From the IMG/VR virus record IMGVR_UViG_2529292919_000024: a DNA stretch of 36,266 nt. One strand, 5' to 3'. This DNA is from a virus. Lineage: Duplodnaviria > Heunggongvirae > Uroviricota > Caudoviricetes. Positions 1 through 36,266 of the stretch are shown piece after piece; position 1 is the stretch's first letter; the number at the start of each line of letters is the position of its first letter. Both the position numbers and the translations under genes were made by a program. The notes under the pieces were generated by a model that was not told the DNA's origin, searched no databases, and was given only the letters and a program-made list of their open reading frames with translations.

Positions 1-696
1 TCACTTAGGGTATGGCTGAACCCTGAATAGCTTGGTGTTTAGCCGCTTCCTTGCTCGCTTGTTCAGGAATCTGATGTAGCGATACTGATTAAATTTGTGC
101 ACCACGGCACGCTCTTTATTAGCCCGTAAATACACGCCTCGTTGTCCACCTCGCTTAATCGCGTTCATCGTTATCTCGTGATACCACTCACCATCCAGCT
201 CGTAGAACGTACTTTCATGACTGCCAATAAAATCAAAATTCGACGCCTGATACACAACGCCTGCGCGTCCGCAGCGTTCGTCAGCAAAGGACTGAACCCA
301 CTCCACTGACGGATACAGTAATCTGATAACTTTCAGCGCGTAGCTGATGGCCCGTGATTCAGAGTTGCGGGGCATGTCGTCGTGTAGCCACATGCGGTTC
401 AACTCCATATAGCCCCGGTTATCCGTTTCAAGCACGACACGACGACCTGAGTTGGGGTTAAGGGCATATCCCCACTGGAGAACGCCAACCAGATCGCGTC
501 CGCTGAATACCCCCAGGTGAAGGTAAGAGTTATTCACAAAACGGCGGGAATAGTGCTTTGTCTGAATAATTGTGCGGGCTAGCCAGCAGGATATGGTTTC
601 AACGCGCAGCTCCTTTGAACCATAGCCAACAATCTGGCCTTCATACTCAATAACGCACGGTTTCGTCAGAATGCGTGATTTCTTCTCTTTTCCCAC
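1..696 (-). CDS. mom: Mom DNA-modification protein (adenine N6 acetamido modification, anti-restriction)
   Basis: ORF 1..726 runs to the window edge and its sequence matches Mu Mom as I recall it. The likely start is GTG at 696..694, preceded by GGAG at a 7-nt spacing and giving 231 aa. The in-frame ATG at 726 has no Shine-Dalgarno sequence. The start overlaps the com 3' end, as in Mu. Confidence 0.85.
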
Positions 697-835
697 AATG
701 TTTCTCCGTGGGATGCTCGCAGGCATTCAGCATTATGATGTGACGTTTGCAACGCGGACACCTGATTTCAATGTGAACAAAGGAATCCGCCTTAAATAAC
801 AGTTTGTTGCAGTTTTTACAGCGAATTGATTTCAT
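647..835 (-). CDS. com: Com zinc-finger translational activator of mom
   Basis: 62-aa [16 protein letters not shown]...CPRCKRH with a C4 zinc-ribbon motif, near-identical to Mu Com as recalled. Strong RBS AAAGGAGGTGAG before the ATG; overlaps the mom start. Confidence 0.92.
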
Positions 836-944
836 CTCACCTCCTTTGCATCAATTCGCCACTATCTTAAAAAACATCGTGGGTTAAGTGTGGTTATTAG
901 GGCATAATCGATCTGTATTACCGATCGATTTGATTGATTCGATC
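836..944 (-). promoter_or_regulatory. Pmom late promoter region with upstream Dam GATC cluster
   Basis: The minus-strand sense reads CGATGTTTTTTAAGAT, a T6 run abutting the -10-like TAAGAT (plus 864..874), about 25 nt upstream of the com ATG. Three GATC sites at 910, 923 and 941 overlap the gin stop, matching the Dam/OxyR-sensitive region described for Mu mom. The same T6 plus -10 arrangement recurs upstream of lys. Confidence 0.6.
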
Positions 945-1511
945 GTCGTTTTCTATATGCGTTCGTTTCGCAGGGTGTTTTTTATACAGAGTTGAGAGGG
1001 CCACATCGTAGATCAATGCGACCTGCTTGCGGGGGATTCCTTGTGCTAATAAACGCCCGGCCTGCTCCCACTCTGCTTTGGTTAGTTTAGGTGGTCGCCC
1101 ACCAATACGGCCTTTATTTCTGGCGGCAGCAAGTCCAGCCATCGTTCGCTCGATAATTAGTTCTCGTTCCATTTCAGCCAGAGCCCCCATAACGTGGAAG
1201 AAAAAACGCCCCATTGGAGAAGATGTGTCTATGCTGTCGGTCAGACTGCGAAAATTAATCCCTCGCTCCCGTAGTTCCCCGACGAGAGAAATCAGATGTT
1301 TCATGCTTCGCCCGAGGCGATCCAGTTTCCAGACAACCAGCGTGTCACCTTTTTGAAGGCGCTTTAAAGCGCGTTTTAATCCCGGTCGGTCTGTCTTTGT
1401 CCCGCTTAATTTATCTTCAAATATTTGTTCACATCCTGCACAAACAAGAGCGTTTCGTTGCAGGTCTGTATTCTGGTCATTTGTTGATACCCTTATATAG
1501 CCAATCAGCAC
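918..1511 (-). CDS. gin: Gin serine recombinase (G-segment DNA invertase)
   Basis: 197-aa ORF beginning MLIGYIRVSTNDQNTDLQRNAL, the resolvase/invertase N-terminal catalytic motif, with a C-terminal HTH. It lies immediately next to a gix site. Start is GTG at 1511 with a GGGAG Shine-Dalgarno sequence. Confidence 0.93.
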   Translation of the reverse strand: MLIGYIRVSTNDQNTDLQRNALVCAGCEQIFEDKLSGTKTDRPGLKRALKRLQKGDTLVVWKLDRLGRSMKHLISLVGELRERGINFRSLTDSIDTSSPMGRFFFHVMGALAEMERELIIERTMAGLAAARNKGRIGGRPPKLTKAEWEQAGRLLAQGIPRKQVALIYDVALSTLYKKHPAKRTHIENDDRINQIDR

Positions 1512-3102: not shown

Positions 3103-3628
3103 ATTCAGGCTTTTGTGGCCATTCAGGATTTGCCGTATCCACACGGCTGACCAGAACACTGTAGCGCTCCCATGCTTCCAGTCGGCTACGCTCCTCATCT
3201 GTTGCCATGTTCAGCCTGACAGCGCGTTCCAGTGGCTGAATAACGCTTTCTGCTTCAGAAAGCAACGCGGCCTTTTGTGATTCGGCCTGTTGTTGCAGTT
3301 CCTGTTCTGTATATTCCCTCTTTACTACTTTACCATACAGAAACATCCATTTTCCGTTATTGTCTGCGCGACGATTTGCCGTAATATCAGGAACTTCAAC
3401 TATGCTTAGCCCTTCAGGATTAATAGTTGAAACGTCTTTACTGACAGCAACGATGATGTTGTTCTCATCGTAAGCAATTTTTATGGTGTCTGGCTGAAAA
3501 TTCTTTTGTTCCTCATACCAGTTTTTGCCATCTTCGCAAAAGAGCCATACCACGCCCGCTTTTTCAGTTAGCTGGTATTGTTCTTTTGTTTTAGGGTTGC
3601 CAGCAGTAATATTTTTTAAGTGCATCAT
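3101..3628 (-). CDS. U: Tail fibre assembly protein U
   Basis: Begins at ATGATG directly after the S stop, with GGAG upstream; 175 aa; paralogue of U'. The ORF-track start at 3664 is an in-frame extension overlapping S. Confidence 0.85.
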
Positions 3629-3629
3629 C

Positions 3630-5039
3630 TTAAACACTCCCCACGTTGTACCATATTCCCCCAATCAATTTCTGAATTGGCCTTCTGGCAACAGTGTCGA
3701 CAAGATCATCCGCATTGCCGTTAATTGCGGCTGTTAAAACATAACCTGACGCATCGCCAAAGCCGTAGTCGCGCCATACGTTTTTATATTCAATGCTGCC
3801 AAGACGAATATCCCGAACGACATGATTATGCAGCCATGTGCTTAACCAGTTGTTTTCCCACACTGAACCATAAATATCGCCATTAGACGCAACTTGCGCA
3901 CCACTTCCCAGAGCGAAACCGCCATCCCTTTTAAAGATGAAGTCACCACCACCATCTGAACCGTTATTAATATGAACACCATCACCACCGTTATCTTTCC
4001 ACAAAAACATACGAATACTTCCGTCTTCGTTGGTGAATGTAATGTGGTGGCGGTAATTACTTTTTAATCTAAAACTGCTGCAATTAGATTCAATATCTTT
4101 ATAAAGATGTAATCCTAACCCATCAATATGTCCGATGCGCGAACCATTTGAATAGAAGCTAATAATACCATCTCCATCTTGCCTAAATCCGGTGTCGTTA
4201 TCTCCCAGAACAATGGAGTTTTCACCCAGTGCGTTATCAGTAGCACCAATAGCTAGACCTCCTTCAATTTTGGCCCCGTGGCTGACATATATAGCACCTG
4301 TTCTCAGATTTATAGCGAATGGCCTTAATGGGCCGATATCACCGTTTTCGCCTTGTCCTTCAGCCGTCGGAATGAAATGAAGAAAATCTTCTGAACGACG
4401 GAAAATAAGACCGAAGGCATCATTGAAAATTCGCAGCGCATTCACCGTGCCAATTTTCAGTTCTCCGGTCATTTTATCGCCGGAACGCTGAACGGCGTTA
4501 CCAGCCTTGTTTACCGTTTCCTGTAAACCGACGTTTTGGATAAACAGCGGCTTATTGGGAATATCTGCTCCGTTCCGGTCTTTTGCCAGACGGGCATTGG
4601 CATTATCCATCGCAATTTTCACCGCTTTTGCGGTGGCTGCCAGCGTTTCACTGGGGCTGTCAGTGGCACTGGTTAGCTGAACGAGTCCTTTTTTGTTCAG
4701 GCTGGCATCATAGATATCCAGATTTTCACGTGCTGTACGCTGTGCTGATACCCCGGCAATTTTAATTTCGCTGAGGTTATTTTTTATCAGCAGCGCGTTC
4801 TTGTTCATGATGGCTTTAATGGACAGTGCAAGCTGGTTTAATTTTGTTTTATCCGGTTGAATACCGGCTTCTTCCAGCGTGTTTAATAACTCCGCCTGCA
4901 CAATATTAAACCAGTCCATGCCGGGCCATGTGATAACATTATTCCCGTCACCTTCTGAAAACCAGCGAACGATAGCACTACGCTGGGCGGATACGGGCGG
5001 CATGACGGTTACGCCGCTGTCGTTATCAATATAAAACAT
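3630..5039 (-). CDS. S: Tail fibre protein S (constant Sc plus variable Sv)
   Basis: 469-aa ORF. The gix site lies inside it at 4518..4543, dividing a constant N-terminal part of about 165 aa from the variable part. Glycine-rich, fibre-like composition. Confidence 0.88.
4510..4543. repeat. gix inversion site / 34-bp inverted repeat (inside S)
   Basis: Reverse complement of 1566..1599 with one mismatch in the core and one outside; the central TC crossover dinucleotide is conserved. Confidence 0.9.
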
Positions 5040-26110: not shown

Positions 26111-26533
26111 TTATTTCTGGCTTTCAGGTGAGAACAGATCAGGCTGATGACGTCGTGTATGCAGCTTTCTCTGGCGGGCAATAATCTGGTAGATCTGCGG
26201 CTGGGACAGGCGATACTGGCGACGCAGTTCTTCCATGTTACGACCATTGAACTGGCAGTAAAGCAAATCGTCGCGTAACGCGGTCAGGATCGTATCGCCG
26301 CAGGGGATGTAAAACTGCCGCCCGCCCAGAAAACAGGACAGGGCAACGGCCTGTTTACGGGCAAGCTCACGGGGATTGCTGACGTTCTGGCGTTTCAGTT
26401 CGTTTTCCAGAACATCAATCAGATCAACCACCGAACGGGGCCAGCGTGATTCCAGTTCCGGGGCCGGGATGTTATCAATATGTCCGATTAACTGGCGAAT
26501 TGCCGGATCGTGTTCAAATAAATCATGCTGCAT
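26111..26533 (-). CDS. C: Late gene transcription activator C
   Basis: 140 aa, paralogous to Mor in its C-terminal HTH (compare GGRQFYIPCG with GGGQVYIPRG). Last gene of the middle operon, upstream of lys. Confidence 0.9.
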   Translation of the reverse strand: MQHDLFEHDPAIRQLIGHIDNIPAPELESRWPRSVVDLIDVLENELKRQNVSNPRELARKQAVALSCFLGGRQFYIPCGDTILTALRDDLLYCQFNGRNMEELRRQYRLSQPQIYQIIARQRKLHTRRHQPDLFSPESQK

Positions 26534-28262: not shown

Positions 28263-28292
28263 TTGCTCACCTCTCATATTAAGGAATGAGAT

Positions 28293-28709
28293 ATGAAAAT
28301 TGATTATGACGAGATAGCCAGAATATTTGATGTTTTTCTGGAGGCCGACACCGCATTCATTCGACTGGAAGATGTCGGCTGGGATCGTTCTCAGCGGCAC
28401 AGCGACAGCCATCAGAAGCTGGTTTTCCATCTTCTGTTGCTGGTTGAAAATGGTTTTATCAGCAACAGATATCTGGAAACAGGCACCGCAAAAAGCATTG
28501 GTCTCACCCCAACAAGCCTCGGATATTCATATTCAGGCACCAGTGTCAGACTCACACAAGATGGTCATGATTTTGCGAAAGCACTACATCAAAAACCAAT
28601 TCTTGAGCGCATAAAACAGGACCTTGCCGACGCCCCGATGACGCTCGTAACAGACGTCGGCAAACAGTGGTTAACCTCGTTTCTTAAAAAGAAACTCGGG
28701 ATTGAATAG
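28293..28709 (+). CDS. Opposite-strand hypothetical protein, DUF2513-like small winged-helix-type protein (candidate moron/accessory gene)
   Basis: 138-aa ORF with a strong RBS (AAGGAATGAGAT then ATG) and protein-like composition. It is the only plus-strand gene between c and the G segment. It diverges from gemA with 30 bp between the starts and overlaps the upstream early gene's 3' end convergently by 39 nt. Confidence 0.65.
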   Translation: MKIDYDEIARIFDVFLEADTAFIRLEDVGWDRSQRHSDSHQKLVFHLLLLVENGFISNRYLETGTAKSIGLTPTSLGYSYSGTSVRLTQDGHDFAKALHQKPILERIKQDLADAPMTLVTDVGKQWLTSFLKKKLGIE

Positions 28710-28982
28710 TTCCCGGTTCATACGTTGCAGCACATCAAGGGCGGCGACAGCCGCCACTTTATCGTTACCATCAGCAATAGTGCGGAGATTTTCAATAATC
28801 CAGTGAGGACTCAGTGACTCAGCAATAATGCCAAACCGGTACGCCATGACTTCATCAATAGCTTTTTCATGAGACGGCTCATATACAAAATTCACAAAGT
28901 CATGCACTTCTTTTTTCGGCAAACCACCGGCAATCAGCAGGGCGGCAAGCTCTTCTGATTTTGAAAATACACCATTATTCAT
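28671..28982 (-). CDS. Hypothetical early protein (Mu gp15-position)
   Basis: 103 aa from the ATG at 28982, which has an AAGGTGAG Shine-Dalgarno sequence. The ORF-track GTG at 28997 is a short extension. Confidence 0.6.
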   Translation of the reverse strand: MNNGVFSKSEELAALLIAGGLPKKEVHDFVNFVYEPSHEKAIDEVMAYRFGIIAESLSPHWIIENLRTIADGNDKVAAVAALDVLQRMNRELFNPEFLFKKRG

Positions 28983-31584: not shown

Positions 31585-31652
31585 TGTCAGCGTTCCTTTG
31601 CGAATTAATGTCTGGCTGTATTCGGGTTATAGCTGAATAATTTCCCCTCAGC

Positions 31653-31874
31653 TTACAGCCCAAGCTCCCTGGCTGATTTCAACAACTCCTCGGTCGCTTT
31701 TTTAATGATTTCAGGAGCCATGCTCTTGATGATGCCTGCCATTACATCATGTGGCCCGGTCTGGTCCTCAGGTGAGGATTCTTCCAGTCGCACATTCATA
31801 TTTACGGCAAAACCTCCATTTTCCTGAAACTCAATATTTCTTGTATTGTTAAATTCAAAGATTACTTTTGCCAT
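31653..31874 (-). CDS. Hypothetical early protein
   Basis: 73-aa acidic ORF. Confidence 0.5.
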   Translation of the reverse strand: MAKVIFEFNNTRNIEFQENGGFAVNMNVRLEESSPEDQTGPHDVMAGIIKSMAPEIIKKATEELLKSARELGL

Positions 31875-31885
31875 TTTGTTTCACC

Positions 31886-32140
31886 TTATTGATTCTGAAT
31901 AACTGCGCTGGCTTTTACCTTCGCGCCTTTTACCTGCTTAAAGAAAACTGCGCTGCACCACGGACAACATGTCAGGGAATCCCGAATTTCCTTTTCGGGT
32001 GAGCATTGCGTCATAATCTGTTCACCGCATCCGGGGCATTTATATGTCGTCAGCGGCACCCCGTGGCACTGACAGTGTTTAACCCATTCAATATATTTTT
32101 CAGCTTTAATACACATCGTTATCTCCAGATAATCTGGCAA
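31886..32140 (-). CDS. Small Cys-rich (zinc-binding) early protein
   Basis: 84 aa with HCQCH...CPGC...CCPWC. Confidence 0.55.
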
Positions 32141-33338: not shown

Positions 33339-35327
33339 TTAAATGGCTTTTTTACGTCTGTTCTGTTCCAGAATATCCAGCGAATGATTCAGATATTCAT
33401 CACGCTCAGTTTCGTATTCATCATCACGCTCCTGATTCTTCACCCGTTCCGTATTACCGGAAGGCCGGAAAATACCAACAATTCGTGATTCTGGTGCTGC
33501 TGGTTCGGCTATCTGCGGCAGCAGTTCAGCAACTTCCAGCGCGTCCATTTGTTTCTGCGCCTTAATGGCTGCTTTAGTTGCAGATTTCAGTTGTTTCTGG
33601 CGGCGGCGATATTCACGGCCTGCCGCAGCATCATTAAATGCAACAGGTGCCAGACATTCCGCTTCACAGATAAACCGACCGTCCAGGGTGTAACAATAAA
33701 CCGTGCTGTGTAGCTGCTGCGGATCAAACCTGACCACAACTTTTTTCACGCCGGCATTCATTAATGCCATGTTGTAATAAACGTTTTTCGCGCCTTTAAG
33801 GGAGCCGCCAACTTTAAGCGTAAACTCGCCTTTGCGTGAAACGTTCACCGCCTCGGCAGGCAGTAACAGCATCCGTTTTTGTTCTTCGGTTGGCTTACGC
33901 ACAATCGTTCTGGCGTATTCACGCTCGAAAACATCATCAAACGAGAGTTTGCCCCCGCACATTTCTGTTTCACGGCCTGTTCTGGCATTGAACATCGCCA
34001 CACCTTCGGCAAGGGTTTTCAGAAACAGCTCTGCATCAACAGCGCGGTTGCCATAGTTATCAGGTTTTGCCTGCGGATTTGGCCCCGTATATGCGCCAGC
34101 CAGTGCCGGATGCTTATCAACGTATTCCTCAAGCCCACCAACACCGAAAGCACGTTCAACAGGTTTTGCCTGGCCCCAGCCTTTACCGGCAACAACGCTT
34201 GTCCAGTGCATTTTCGCACCCATCAGTAAAAACAATCCCTTTGGATCGTCTTCTTTCACCTTAAAGCGGTAGCGATTGGGCGCGCCTCCCGTCAGCCATT
34301 TATTCGCAGCACCACGGGTGTTATCAATGGTGATGTGAAAATCCTCCGGGATACCGTAGCGAGTCACAACATCCATGAACGAGAGGCGAATTGAATCAAT
34401 GTTCTCGCTCACATCGCAGCGCCAGCCCAGAATTTTTCGGGTTTTCACATCCTGCCAGAACCATGTTTTCGGGCGGATCACATCACCGTTAAACCAGCGT
34501 ACAAAGACGTTATGCAGATAACCGTCGCCGTTGATCCACTGCAAGGCGTCCAGGTGTTCCACAGTTCGCTGCTGTGCCGGTATCAGATGCATCAGTGCAT
34601 GTTCACCTTCACGACAGGCAACAACCATTGCCTCGTCCAGTTGCTGAATCCGGCGAAAGGCCGTGGCACGGGAGGGAATACTCCAGCCATGCTCGCGGGC
34701 TGCCAGTTCCAGACGCTCATAACATTTGCGGAAGGCGGGTTTTTCCGGTCGCAGATAATCTGCAATCAGAAACTGCCAGGCATCCTCGTCAAATTCACTT
34801 TTGTGAACATTGCGACGGGATGCACCACGTCCATCAACAAGTGCAGCCGCCCAGTCAGGCTTCGCAAACTTCTGTACCTGGTAATACTTGTCCCGCAAAG
34901 TGGATGCGCTGATCTGGTAATGCCCTGCAACGGTCGCAAAAGCCGTTTTCGTTGAAATCCCCTGGTTCAGCATTTCGTCTGCAGCCTGAACCGCAGGCAA
35001 CCATTTTTCAGCAAGTCTGCGCTGGGAATCGCTGGCTTTATCCCATTTGCTCCACAGCACCTCACGATCATAATCATGGGCTTCCAGCGTGGGGCGGGCG
35101 ATTTCAAAACGGCCCAGGCTTGTTTCAATTCTCCCTTGTTGCAACAGAATTTCAGCACGTAATGCGACAGGGAATGATTTGATATTGAATTCAAATGATA
35201 CACCTTTAGTCCCTGCAACCTGCCTGAACTCCCAGCCTTCTCTTTGTGCCTTACGTGTAATGTTAGTGGCTTGCTTTGGTAAACCTGCCAAACCGAGCAA
35301 CTCTTTTGCTGTATACCATTCTTTCAT
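33339..35327 (-). CDS. A: DDE transposase A
   Basis: 662 aa. From about residue 60 it matches MuA as recalled ([15 protein letters not shown]...) and ends ...NRRKKAI. The N-terminal roughly 60 aa differ from Mu, as described for D108. Confidence 0.95.
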
Positions 35328-35334
35328 AGCGCAC

Positions 35335-35556
35335 CTAGTATCGAGACGGCCAAATATCTTGCGGTGTCATTCCCAGTGCATCTGCAATGATTTTCTCCGC
35401 TTTCGGATATCTCTTATCCAAAGCATTTTTTAATGTTGAAGACGAAAGATGATTAGATCTTCCCAATTCAGCTAGTGACATATTGCGTTTTCGTAGCTCT
35501 GCAACGATGTCAGCTCTGTGCCAATCTTGGCGGTTAGTTCTTTTATTCATATGCAT
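35335..35556 (-). CDS. ner: Ner early-region repressor (Cro-like)
   Basis: 73-aa HTH protein, the size of D108 Ner (Mu Ner is 75 aa), directly upstream of A. Confidence 0.88.
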
Positions 35557-35741
35557 TTCATGTAATCCTTTCAGATTCCCCCGTGAGCTACGCTATAAAG
35601 TAGCTCACGGCATATCGTGCAATGTAGTGTGGAATCACTTTCAAATCAATAGTGATTTGAAAGGATTTGCCATGATTTCATATAACAGCATGATTTTTAT
35701 ATGAATTTATTTTGTCTCTATTGAAATCACTAGGATTTTAA
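35557..35741. promoter_or_regulatory. Immunity/operator region between ner and c (divergent Pe and Pc, Ner and repressor operators)
   Basis: A perfect 11-bp inverted repeat CCGTGAGCTAC with an 8-bp AT spacer lies at 35581..35610. A second dyad, CTTTCAAATCA-ATAG-TGATTTGAAAG, lies at 35638..35663. There are also AT-rich -10/-35-like hexamers on both strands. Confidence 0.7.
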
Positions 35742-36266
35742 ATGATGTCTTTTGAAATCAAAGAATGGTTTAATGCGAAAGAGCTGGAAGGGATGCCTGG
35801 TGTACCAAAGTTGGCGACTAACATTACCAGGAAAGCTGTGGCGGAAGATTGGGTAAAACGTCAGCGTCACGGTGGGAAAGGTGTCGCTTATGAGTATCAC
35901 ATCAACAGTCTGCCAGAAGAAACACGCAGGGCCATTAAAGGAGCCTCACTTTCTGATAAACCAGTGCATACATCAATCGCCCATACAGTTGATGAGAGGC
36001 TAATTTATGCAATGAGCTTCTTAACACCAGATGAGCAGGCCGCAGCTGTGGAGATCATTCGTGTGGCAGGGATTAAAGGACTTATGCCTACAATTGTCAG
36101 TAAAGATAAGGCATTAGAGGCATTAGGGATTACTGTGGAGCAACAGAAAACCCTGCAAACTCTTCAGGCATTACCACCGGAAAAAGTGAGAGAGATTTTG
36201 TCTCAGTATGAAGGCAAAGAACATAATTTCCCTGTAAGAGAAAACGATGTAAAGAAAGCTGTATAA
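35742..36266 (+). CDS. c: Lysogeny repressor c (D108-type)
   Basis: 174-aa ORF divergent from ner. Its N-terminal DNA-binding domain is homologous to the transposase N-terminus (compare [18 protein letters not shown] with [18 protein letters not shown]). Ends ...KKAV. Confidence 0.85.
   Translation: MMSFEIKEWFNAKELEGMPGVPKLATNITRKAVAEDWVKRQRHGGKGVAYEYHINSLPEETRRAIKGASLSDKPVHTSIAHTVDERLIYAMSFLTPDEQAAAVEIIRVAGIKGLMPTIVSKDKALEALGITVEQQKTLQTLQALPPEKVREILSQYEGKEHNFPVRENDVKKAV

Follow-up and report, generated by a model that had tools for sequence, protein, structure and literature searches.

The DNA analysed here (the window) is the whole 36,266-nucleotide stretch of the viral record IMGVR_UViG_2529292919_000024, whose positions 1-1511 carry three genes on the minus strand, coding for a serine invertase, a zinc-ribbon protein and a Mom-family protein. 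Read on that strand, positions 1-1000 correspond to the right end of a Mu-like phage, with the 3' end of gin followed by the mom promoter, com and mom, and the features of the curated Mu record AF083977 (promoter, com RBS, com, mom RBS and mom CDS) map one-to-one onto the window. The gene order gin-Pmom-com-mom is the same in Mu (AF083977 / NC_000929, Mu_52 and Mu_53), and D108 and the Muvirus prophages SfMu and SE11 have the same right-end module. In megablast searches, positions 1-1000 were 98.3% identical to phage Mu and SfMu and 96-98% identical to D108 and Yersinia Mu-like phages, and the prophage of E. coli SE11 matched the com-mom region best overall, with 99.7%. An alignment to Mu com and mom had been proposed as a check by a sequence-only reading of this DNA, made without database searches, and its outcome (the 98.3% identity just given, with 230 of the 231 residues of Mom identical) bears that reading out.

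The remainder of the window was compared with Mu as well. The whole of it is colinear with Mu in the reversed orientation and most of it resembles Mu at the 94-99% level, with little or no Mu similarity at around 3537-4491, 28263-28972, 31600-31841 and 35140-36266. The last of these segments, which holds the genes c and ner and the 5' part of the transposase A gene, gave no megablast match to Mu; its identity is 99.2% with D108 and Mu_3F6 but only 86.7% with SfMu. A D108-type immunity end is thus combined with a Mu-colinear remainder, as in a Mu/D108-mosaic prophage. Judged from its sequence, the window is almost the whole of such a Mu-type prophage and is neither phage itself. One limit of the window coincides with the mom stop codon at position 1, so that the sequence 3' of mom lies outside it, and the other falls inside the repressor gene c or where that gene ends. 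The segment 3537-4491 is the G-segment tail-fibre region, and has a partial 78% match elsewhere in the Mu G segment.

All the promoter elements described for Pmom were found upstream of com, in a region (910-844) onto which the promoter feature of AF083977 maps. The -10 hexamer TAAGAT (869-864, minus strand) is identical to that of Mu, and is abutted by a run of six T (874-869) whose last T is also the first base of the hexamer. The proposed -35 element ACCACA (894-889, minus strand; PMC2582627) is separated from it by a 19-bp spacer, and a strong com Shine-Dalgarno sequence, AGGAGG, read directly and corresponding to the RBS feature of the Mu record, lies at 845-840. Upstream of the -35, and overlapping its first base, there is a dyad TTAT(907-904)-N6-ATAA(897-894) on the minus strand, centred at 900.5 and with both arms as in Mu. 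We take TTAT and ATAA to be the arms of the dyad bound by the activator C. If transcription starts around 857, the centre of the dyad would fall at -43.5, the position published for the C-binding dyad, which overlaps the -35 (PMC2582627). A poor -35 ACCACA, a 19-bp spacer with a stretch of T, dependence on C and control by Dam/OxyR have all been described for Pmom (PMC2582627; PMC3378877), the spacer run being called a "6T stretch" or a "T stretch" (PMC4461284; PMC3378877). A scan of positions 1-1100 with the sigma-70 consensus returned no promoter, as expected because the promoter is activator-dependent and has a 19-bp spacer. The gene for the late activator C is present at 26114..26533 on the minus strand (98.6% identity over 140 amino acids in tblastn with Mu C), in such a way that the -35, the spacer, the T6 run, the -10, the position of the dyad and the C gene, which together define a weak C-dependent promoter, coexist in the same genome. 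The activator-dependent promoter with a T6 run next to the -10 that had been read from the sequence is therefore present, with the refinement that run and hexamer share one base. Compared with Mu, the window has three single-base changes in the spacer regions of the promoter, at 899, 886 and 879, the first being a C-to-T change in the central spacer of the C dyad. D108 has TTATGTCTCAATAA in this dyad spacer, and the 3' end of its mom also differs from that of the window.

The neighbouring gin gene, for the G-segment invertase (197 amino acids, 918..1511 on the minus strand, with the Pfam domains Resolvase and HTH_7), reaches into this regulatory region, its 3' end overlapping two of the three GATC sites located there. 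It encodes four residues (QIDR) more than Mu Gin because the TAA stop codon of Mu is CAA here, as in D108, which gives it the C-terminus length of D108. This extension (918-929) places the second of the GATC sites inside the gin coding sequence.

The three Dam sites, at 910-913, 923-926 and 941-944, lie at around -53 to -87 and constitute the presumed OxyR operator; they are the triplet cluster that had been noticed in the sequence-only reading. GATC is about two-fold under-represented in the window, with 66 sites vs around 133 expected from dinucleotide-preserving shuffles, and 910-944 is its tightest triple. A triple as tight appears with P=0.085 when 66 sites are placed at random, so that by itself it is weakly unusual, and the clustering was discarded as unconvincing as a stand-alone statistic. 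The weight of the cluster comes from its conservation in relatives and from its coincidence with a match to the OxyR consensus. In a scan with ATAGnTnnnAnCTAT-N7-ATAGnTnnnAnCTAT, reportedly the consensus of Toledano et al. 1994, the best score was 13/20, and only two sites in the 36 kb reached it. One of them, 911-947, contains GATC sites of the cluster upstream of the promoter, which is the arrangement of a Dam/OxyR-controlled promoter as far as this consensus goes. The other, at 32093-32129, has no GATC.

The spacing of the sites was compared among relatives. All the enteric clusters that have a promoter-proximal GATC pair upstream of com keep its members 13 bp apart (start to start), and most enteric lineages have a further GATC 18, 19 or 31 bp upstream of that pair. 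The 18+13 bp spacing is kept in diverged enteric relatives despite changed flanks and even a changed gin context. Upstream of com in Pseudomonas phages and in the non-enteric loci L086 and L087 there are no such GATC sites. Mu carries a fourth GATC, inside com (TTTGATCAC), which in the window (775-778) is GTTC, and its loss results in the substitution D20V in Com. The same GTTC/D20V variant was seen in the IMG/VR loci L021 and L035. The primary papers on Dam/OxyR at mom are said to be Bolker & Kahmann 1989 and Hattman & Sun 1997. Control of mom by Dam and OxyR is stated in PMC3378877 and PMC2909390, and the latter describes for E. coli agn43 GATC sites within the OxyR operator whose methylation prevents binding of the repressor. 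As in agn43, the cluster of the window sits on an OxyR-consensus match, one of its two best; unlike agn43, it is placed atop an activator-dependent phage late promoter.

The first gene of the transcript, com (835-647, minus strand), encodes a 62-amino-acid zinc ribbon of the CCCC type, with cysteines at positions 6, 9, 26 and 29 and a match to Pfam PF10122 Zn_ribbon_Com (E=1.3e-7), as expected from the earlier proposal that a zinc-ribbon Com is encoded first. The first 50 nt of mom, including its start at 696, are also com coding sequence. In addition to D20V, this Com differs from that of Mu in K52E, which is silent in mom. A PDB sequence search with Com gave zinc-ribbon matches at chance level only. 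PGAP calls Com a "DNA-binding transcriptional regulator", and it is an RNA-binding translational activator.

The RNA target of Com, the 19-mer GAAUGCCUGCGAGCAUCCC, is found at 728-710 on the minus strand and is the native 19-mer of the published binding assays (PMC6483171). It contains the Com-binding hairpin (726-713), in which AUGC (726-723) pairs with GCAU (716-713) around the loop CUGCGA (722-717). The conservation of this structure was analysed in 18 aligned junctions of distinct sequence, which come from enteric relatives and from the Pseudomonas phage PAN70. The four pairs vary on both sides (AU 9, GC 6 and GU 3; UA 12 and CG 3; GC 17 and AU 1; CG 17 and UA 1), in such a way that 96% of the alignment cells are paired, vs 24-57% when the partners are slid. 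The six covarying sequences come from one or two lineages and therefore represent few independent events. The flanking GA, the first C of the loop and the loop GA are invariant in the 18 sequences, in agreement with the Com literature, where recognition is ascribed to a CC(N)2-3GAG motif in a hexaloop hairpin with protected GA dinucleotides. The determinants of Com recognition (GA, a C-N4-GA hexaloop and a 4-bp stem) are thus recovered from natural variation alone. An Rfam scan of positions 600-1000 returned only a sub-threshold match to IS102 RNA (22.7 bits, below the gathering threshold of 46; E=0.086), which was treated as a chance match; the Com site and the structure next to it are thus without a curated RNA family. 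The literature has likened the Com-mom RNA to HIV Tat-TAR, another small protein acting on a hexaloop hairpin, with the difference that Tat acts on transcription elongation and Com on translation initiation, through the destabilisation of a neighbouring hairpin.

That neighbouring hairpin, the translation inhibition structure (TIS), lies at 712-692 on the minus strand, and the Com-binding hairpin adjoins it on its 5' side. Its arms CCCAC (712-708) and GUGGG (696-692) are those described in the sequence-only reading, with the GUG codon (696-694) inside the second arm and the whole within com. The mom Shine-Dalgarno sequence GGAG (707-704), the RBS feature of the Mu record, was placed by that reading in the loop. 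It does lie between the arms, but the minimum-energy stem has 8 bp (UCCCACGG/UUGUGGGA) and consequently the GG is wobble-paired, so the motif is distributed between loop and inner stem. The 29-nt TIS segment folds with -9.5 kcal/mol (z=-3.07 vs shuffles), and the hairpin persists in contexts of 65 and 71 nt. Possible extensions are an outer U713-A691 pair and inner wobbles of G707 and G706 with U697 and U698; the latter were excluded from the conserved structure as they are not kept outside the Mu group. The flanking 713-691 pair covaries (UA 10, CG 6, UG 1), and the five core pairs are essentially invariant in the 18-sequence alignment. Since these core pairs also code for Pro-Thr in com and for GUG-Gly in mom, their conservation alone is no proof of structure.

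The comparative survey covered around 90 related loci, from Mu, D108, two enteric genomes, the phages PAN70 and JD024, a Magnetospira MAG and 80 IMG/VR contigs. A scan of genome contigs with the Mom protein alone gave 3 loci, and an alignment-based scan of viral contigs was far more productive. All the enteric com-linked mom genes found have their GUG start inside (U/C)CCCAC...GUGGG(A/G), with probabilities of 0.9-1.0 for the start codon being paired. Their loops have between 11 and 20 nt, and in every variant a purine-rich Shine-Dalgarno sequence is in the loop and the stem and the start codon stay in register. A com gene is present in loci L025, L031, L033, L034, L041, L043 and L046, and a partial one, cut by the contig end, in L008. 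Conversely, mom loci without com are L003 (Aeromonas phage pAEv1818), L076, L079, L080, L082 and L088, and in none of these six was a GUG within a hairpin found. The com-less loci that were folded (L076, L079, L082 and L088) have ATG starts and weaker surrounding structure.

The com-less loci have other features nearby. In the Mu-like contigs L076, L079, L080 and L082, mom is around 78% identical and directly follows a 133-amino-acid ORF, with no gin beside it at least in L076. Upstream of these mom genes (around 620-700) there is an imperfect palindrome of about 56 bp with three GATC spaced 31+13 bp, and the candidate starts are ATG. To judge from these sequences, mom seems to be controlled here in another way, independently of com. 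In L003 (500-700), a mom homologue with 68.6% identity lies downstream of the gene for an antitermination protein Q and of a GC-rich hairpin with a run of T after it, suggesting that it may be controlled by antitermination and not by Com.

The mom gene of the window (696..1 on the minus strand, with GTG at 696-694 and TGA at 3-1) encodes a 231-amino-acid protein of the Mom family (Pfam PF25680, E=2.8e-75), whose single difference from Mu Mom is the substitution K225R. The catalytic residues H48, Y49, R101, S114, D139, R141 and Y149 are all present. Mom is known as a GNAT-fold, Gly-tRNA(Gly)-dependent adenine N6 aminoacyltransferase (PMC13219725). A search of NCBIfam with Mom, Com and C reported no family; PGAP nonetheless names the protein.

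The start codon of mom is disputed in the databases, as RefSeq and PGAP use an upstream ATG, and undisputed in the experimental literature. An in-frame ATG at 726-724 begins a 241-amino-acid ORF, the longest one available, and Mom is annotated from this codon in RefSeq NC_000929, in the D108 record GQ357916 (where it has 245 amino acids) and, as WP_001111707.1, in the E. coli prophages annotated by PGAP. The 2026 structural paper on Mom also counts residues from it; R111 and S124 in that numbering become R101 and S114 when counted from the GTG. If Mom were made from this ATG, the GTG and its hairpin would be irrelevant to initiation. Against this, the 20 nt preceding the ATG contain no Shine-Dalgarno sequence, and the codon itself provides the first three bases of the Com hairpin stem (AUGC), which are GUG or GCG in relatives. 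The ATG is absent in relatives of the L006, L050 and L052 types, and in loci of the L006 and L052 types the GTG is the sole in-frame start after the preceding stop. In the same 2026 paper the GTG form, there called delta-10, was well tolerated and fully active and was the one crystallised (PDB 8bv8), and our search matched that structure from residue 11 of the 241-amino-acid ORF. A paper from 2020 gives a mass of 27,050 Da for Mom, which fits the 27,042 computed for the 231-residue form without its methionine and not the 28,146 of the 241-residue form. Finally, the curated Mu record annotates mom from the GTG at window position 696 (RBS GGAG at 707-704, 231 amino acids), and the Com literature places this GUG within the stem of a "translation inhibition structure". 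We are therefore highly confident that the GTG at 696 is the native start of mom, as had been preferred in the sequence-only reading, and consider initiation at the ATG very improbable; the RefSeq and PGAP models of Mom probably begin ten codons too early.

A more radical alternative is that the hairpin and the GATC cluster have no regulatory role and are by-products of overlapping coding (com with mom, and the 3' end of gin) and of chance. The core of the TIS stem is indeed both invariant and doubly coding, the GATC triple by itself gives only the P=0.085 mentioned above, and in its 71-nt context the fold is unremarkable (z=-1.13). However, double coding would have to account for a loop that varies between 11 and 20 nt while the stem and the start codon keep their register, and for compensatory changes at four of the four pairs of the adjacent Com hairpin. 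Neither does chance sit well with a GATC spacing that survives the divergence of the flanks and of gin and is missing in Pseudomonas phages and non-enteric loci, nor with the ATG starts and weak structure of the mom loci that have no com. As decades of genetics also run contrary to it, we give this alternative practically no credence.

The regulatory reading of the locus is thus preferred: the element is almost certainly the canonical com-mom operon of a transposable phage of the Mu/D108 type, with four layers of control. A Mom-family protein, an adjacent and overlapping com, the Com hairpin and a TIS holding the GUG, which characterise the operons of the Mu type, are all found here. The -35, the -10, the T6 run, the arms of the C dyad, the three GATC, the com Shine-Dalgarno sequence, the 19-mer, the TIS and the GUG are identical to those of Mu, and the differences between the window and Mu spare the hexamers, the dyad arms, the GATC of the cluster, the Com target and the TIS. 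The few substitutions of this variant would presumably leave its behaviour unchanged. In claiming a full mom-com control architecture, the sequence-only reading was right about every element it listed; it overlooked the Com-binding hairpin at 726-713.

The way in which the operon would work combines what was established directly, namely the sequence identity of the cis elements, the folds and the comparative conservation and covariation, with the action of C, OxyR/Dam and Com and the chemistry of Mom, which are taken from the literature. Pmom would be intrinsically weak and would fire only with the late activator C on the dyad near -43.5. While the GATC sites are incompletely methylated OxyR would bind and repress the promoter, a repression that Dam methylation would relieve. 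The transcript would be translated first for Com, from the strong AGGAGG, while translation of mom would be blocked, with the GUG and partly the GGAG held in the TIS at 712-692. Com would then bind the hairpin at 726-713, through the loop CUGCGA and the flanking GA, and open the TIS, letting ribosomes start at the GUG at 696. The Mom protein so produced would move glycine from Gly-tRNA(Gly) to the N6 of adenine in double-stranded DNA, and the glycyl adduct would rearrange to 6-NcmdA, with the phage DNA protected from restriction.

This system is already known, its biology having been worked out in phage Mu from the 1980s to 2026, and our finding adds no new system: what it identifies is a prophage of mosaic Mu/D108 make-up whose anti-restriction module is intact. 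Only mildly new are the comparative support for the GUG against RefSeq and PGAP, the covariation of the Com hairpin, the spacing of the GATC sites and a possible toggle at U713. This base is shared by the two hairpins, being the last base of the Com hairpin, where it pairs with A726, and the closing base of the extended TIS, where it pairs with A691. Positions 726, 713 and 691 vary in concert among relatives: A/U/A is replaced by G/C/G, and the intermediates G/U/A and A/U/G also occur. These changes hint that Com, by locking the 726-713 pair, might remove the closing pair of the TIS and fray the helix that holds the start codon, a tentative proposal that we regard as rather unlikely. If true, the toggle would provide a physical mechanism for the "destabilisation" induced by Com, and the E-H-P-T of the Com tail would be a shadow of the RNA target and not a functional peptide. 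This EHPT motif belongs to the disordered tail of Com and is encoded at 716-708, that is, by the 3' arm of the Com hairpin and the 5' arm of the TIS, and constraints on the RNA rather than on the protein may explain why it is conserved among Com proteins.
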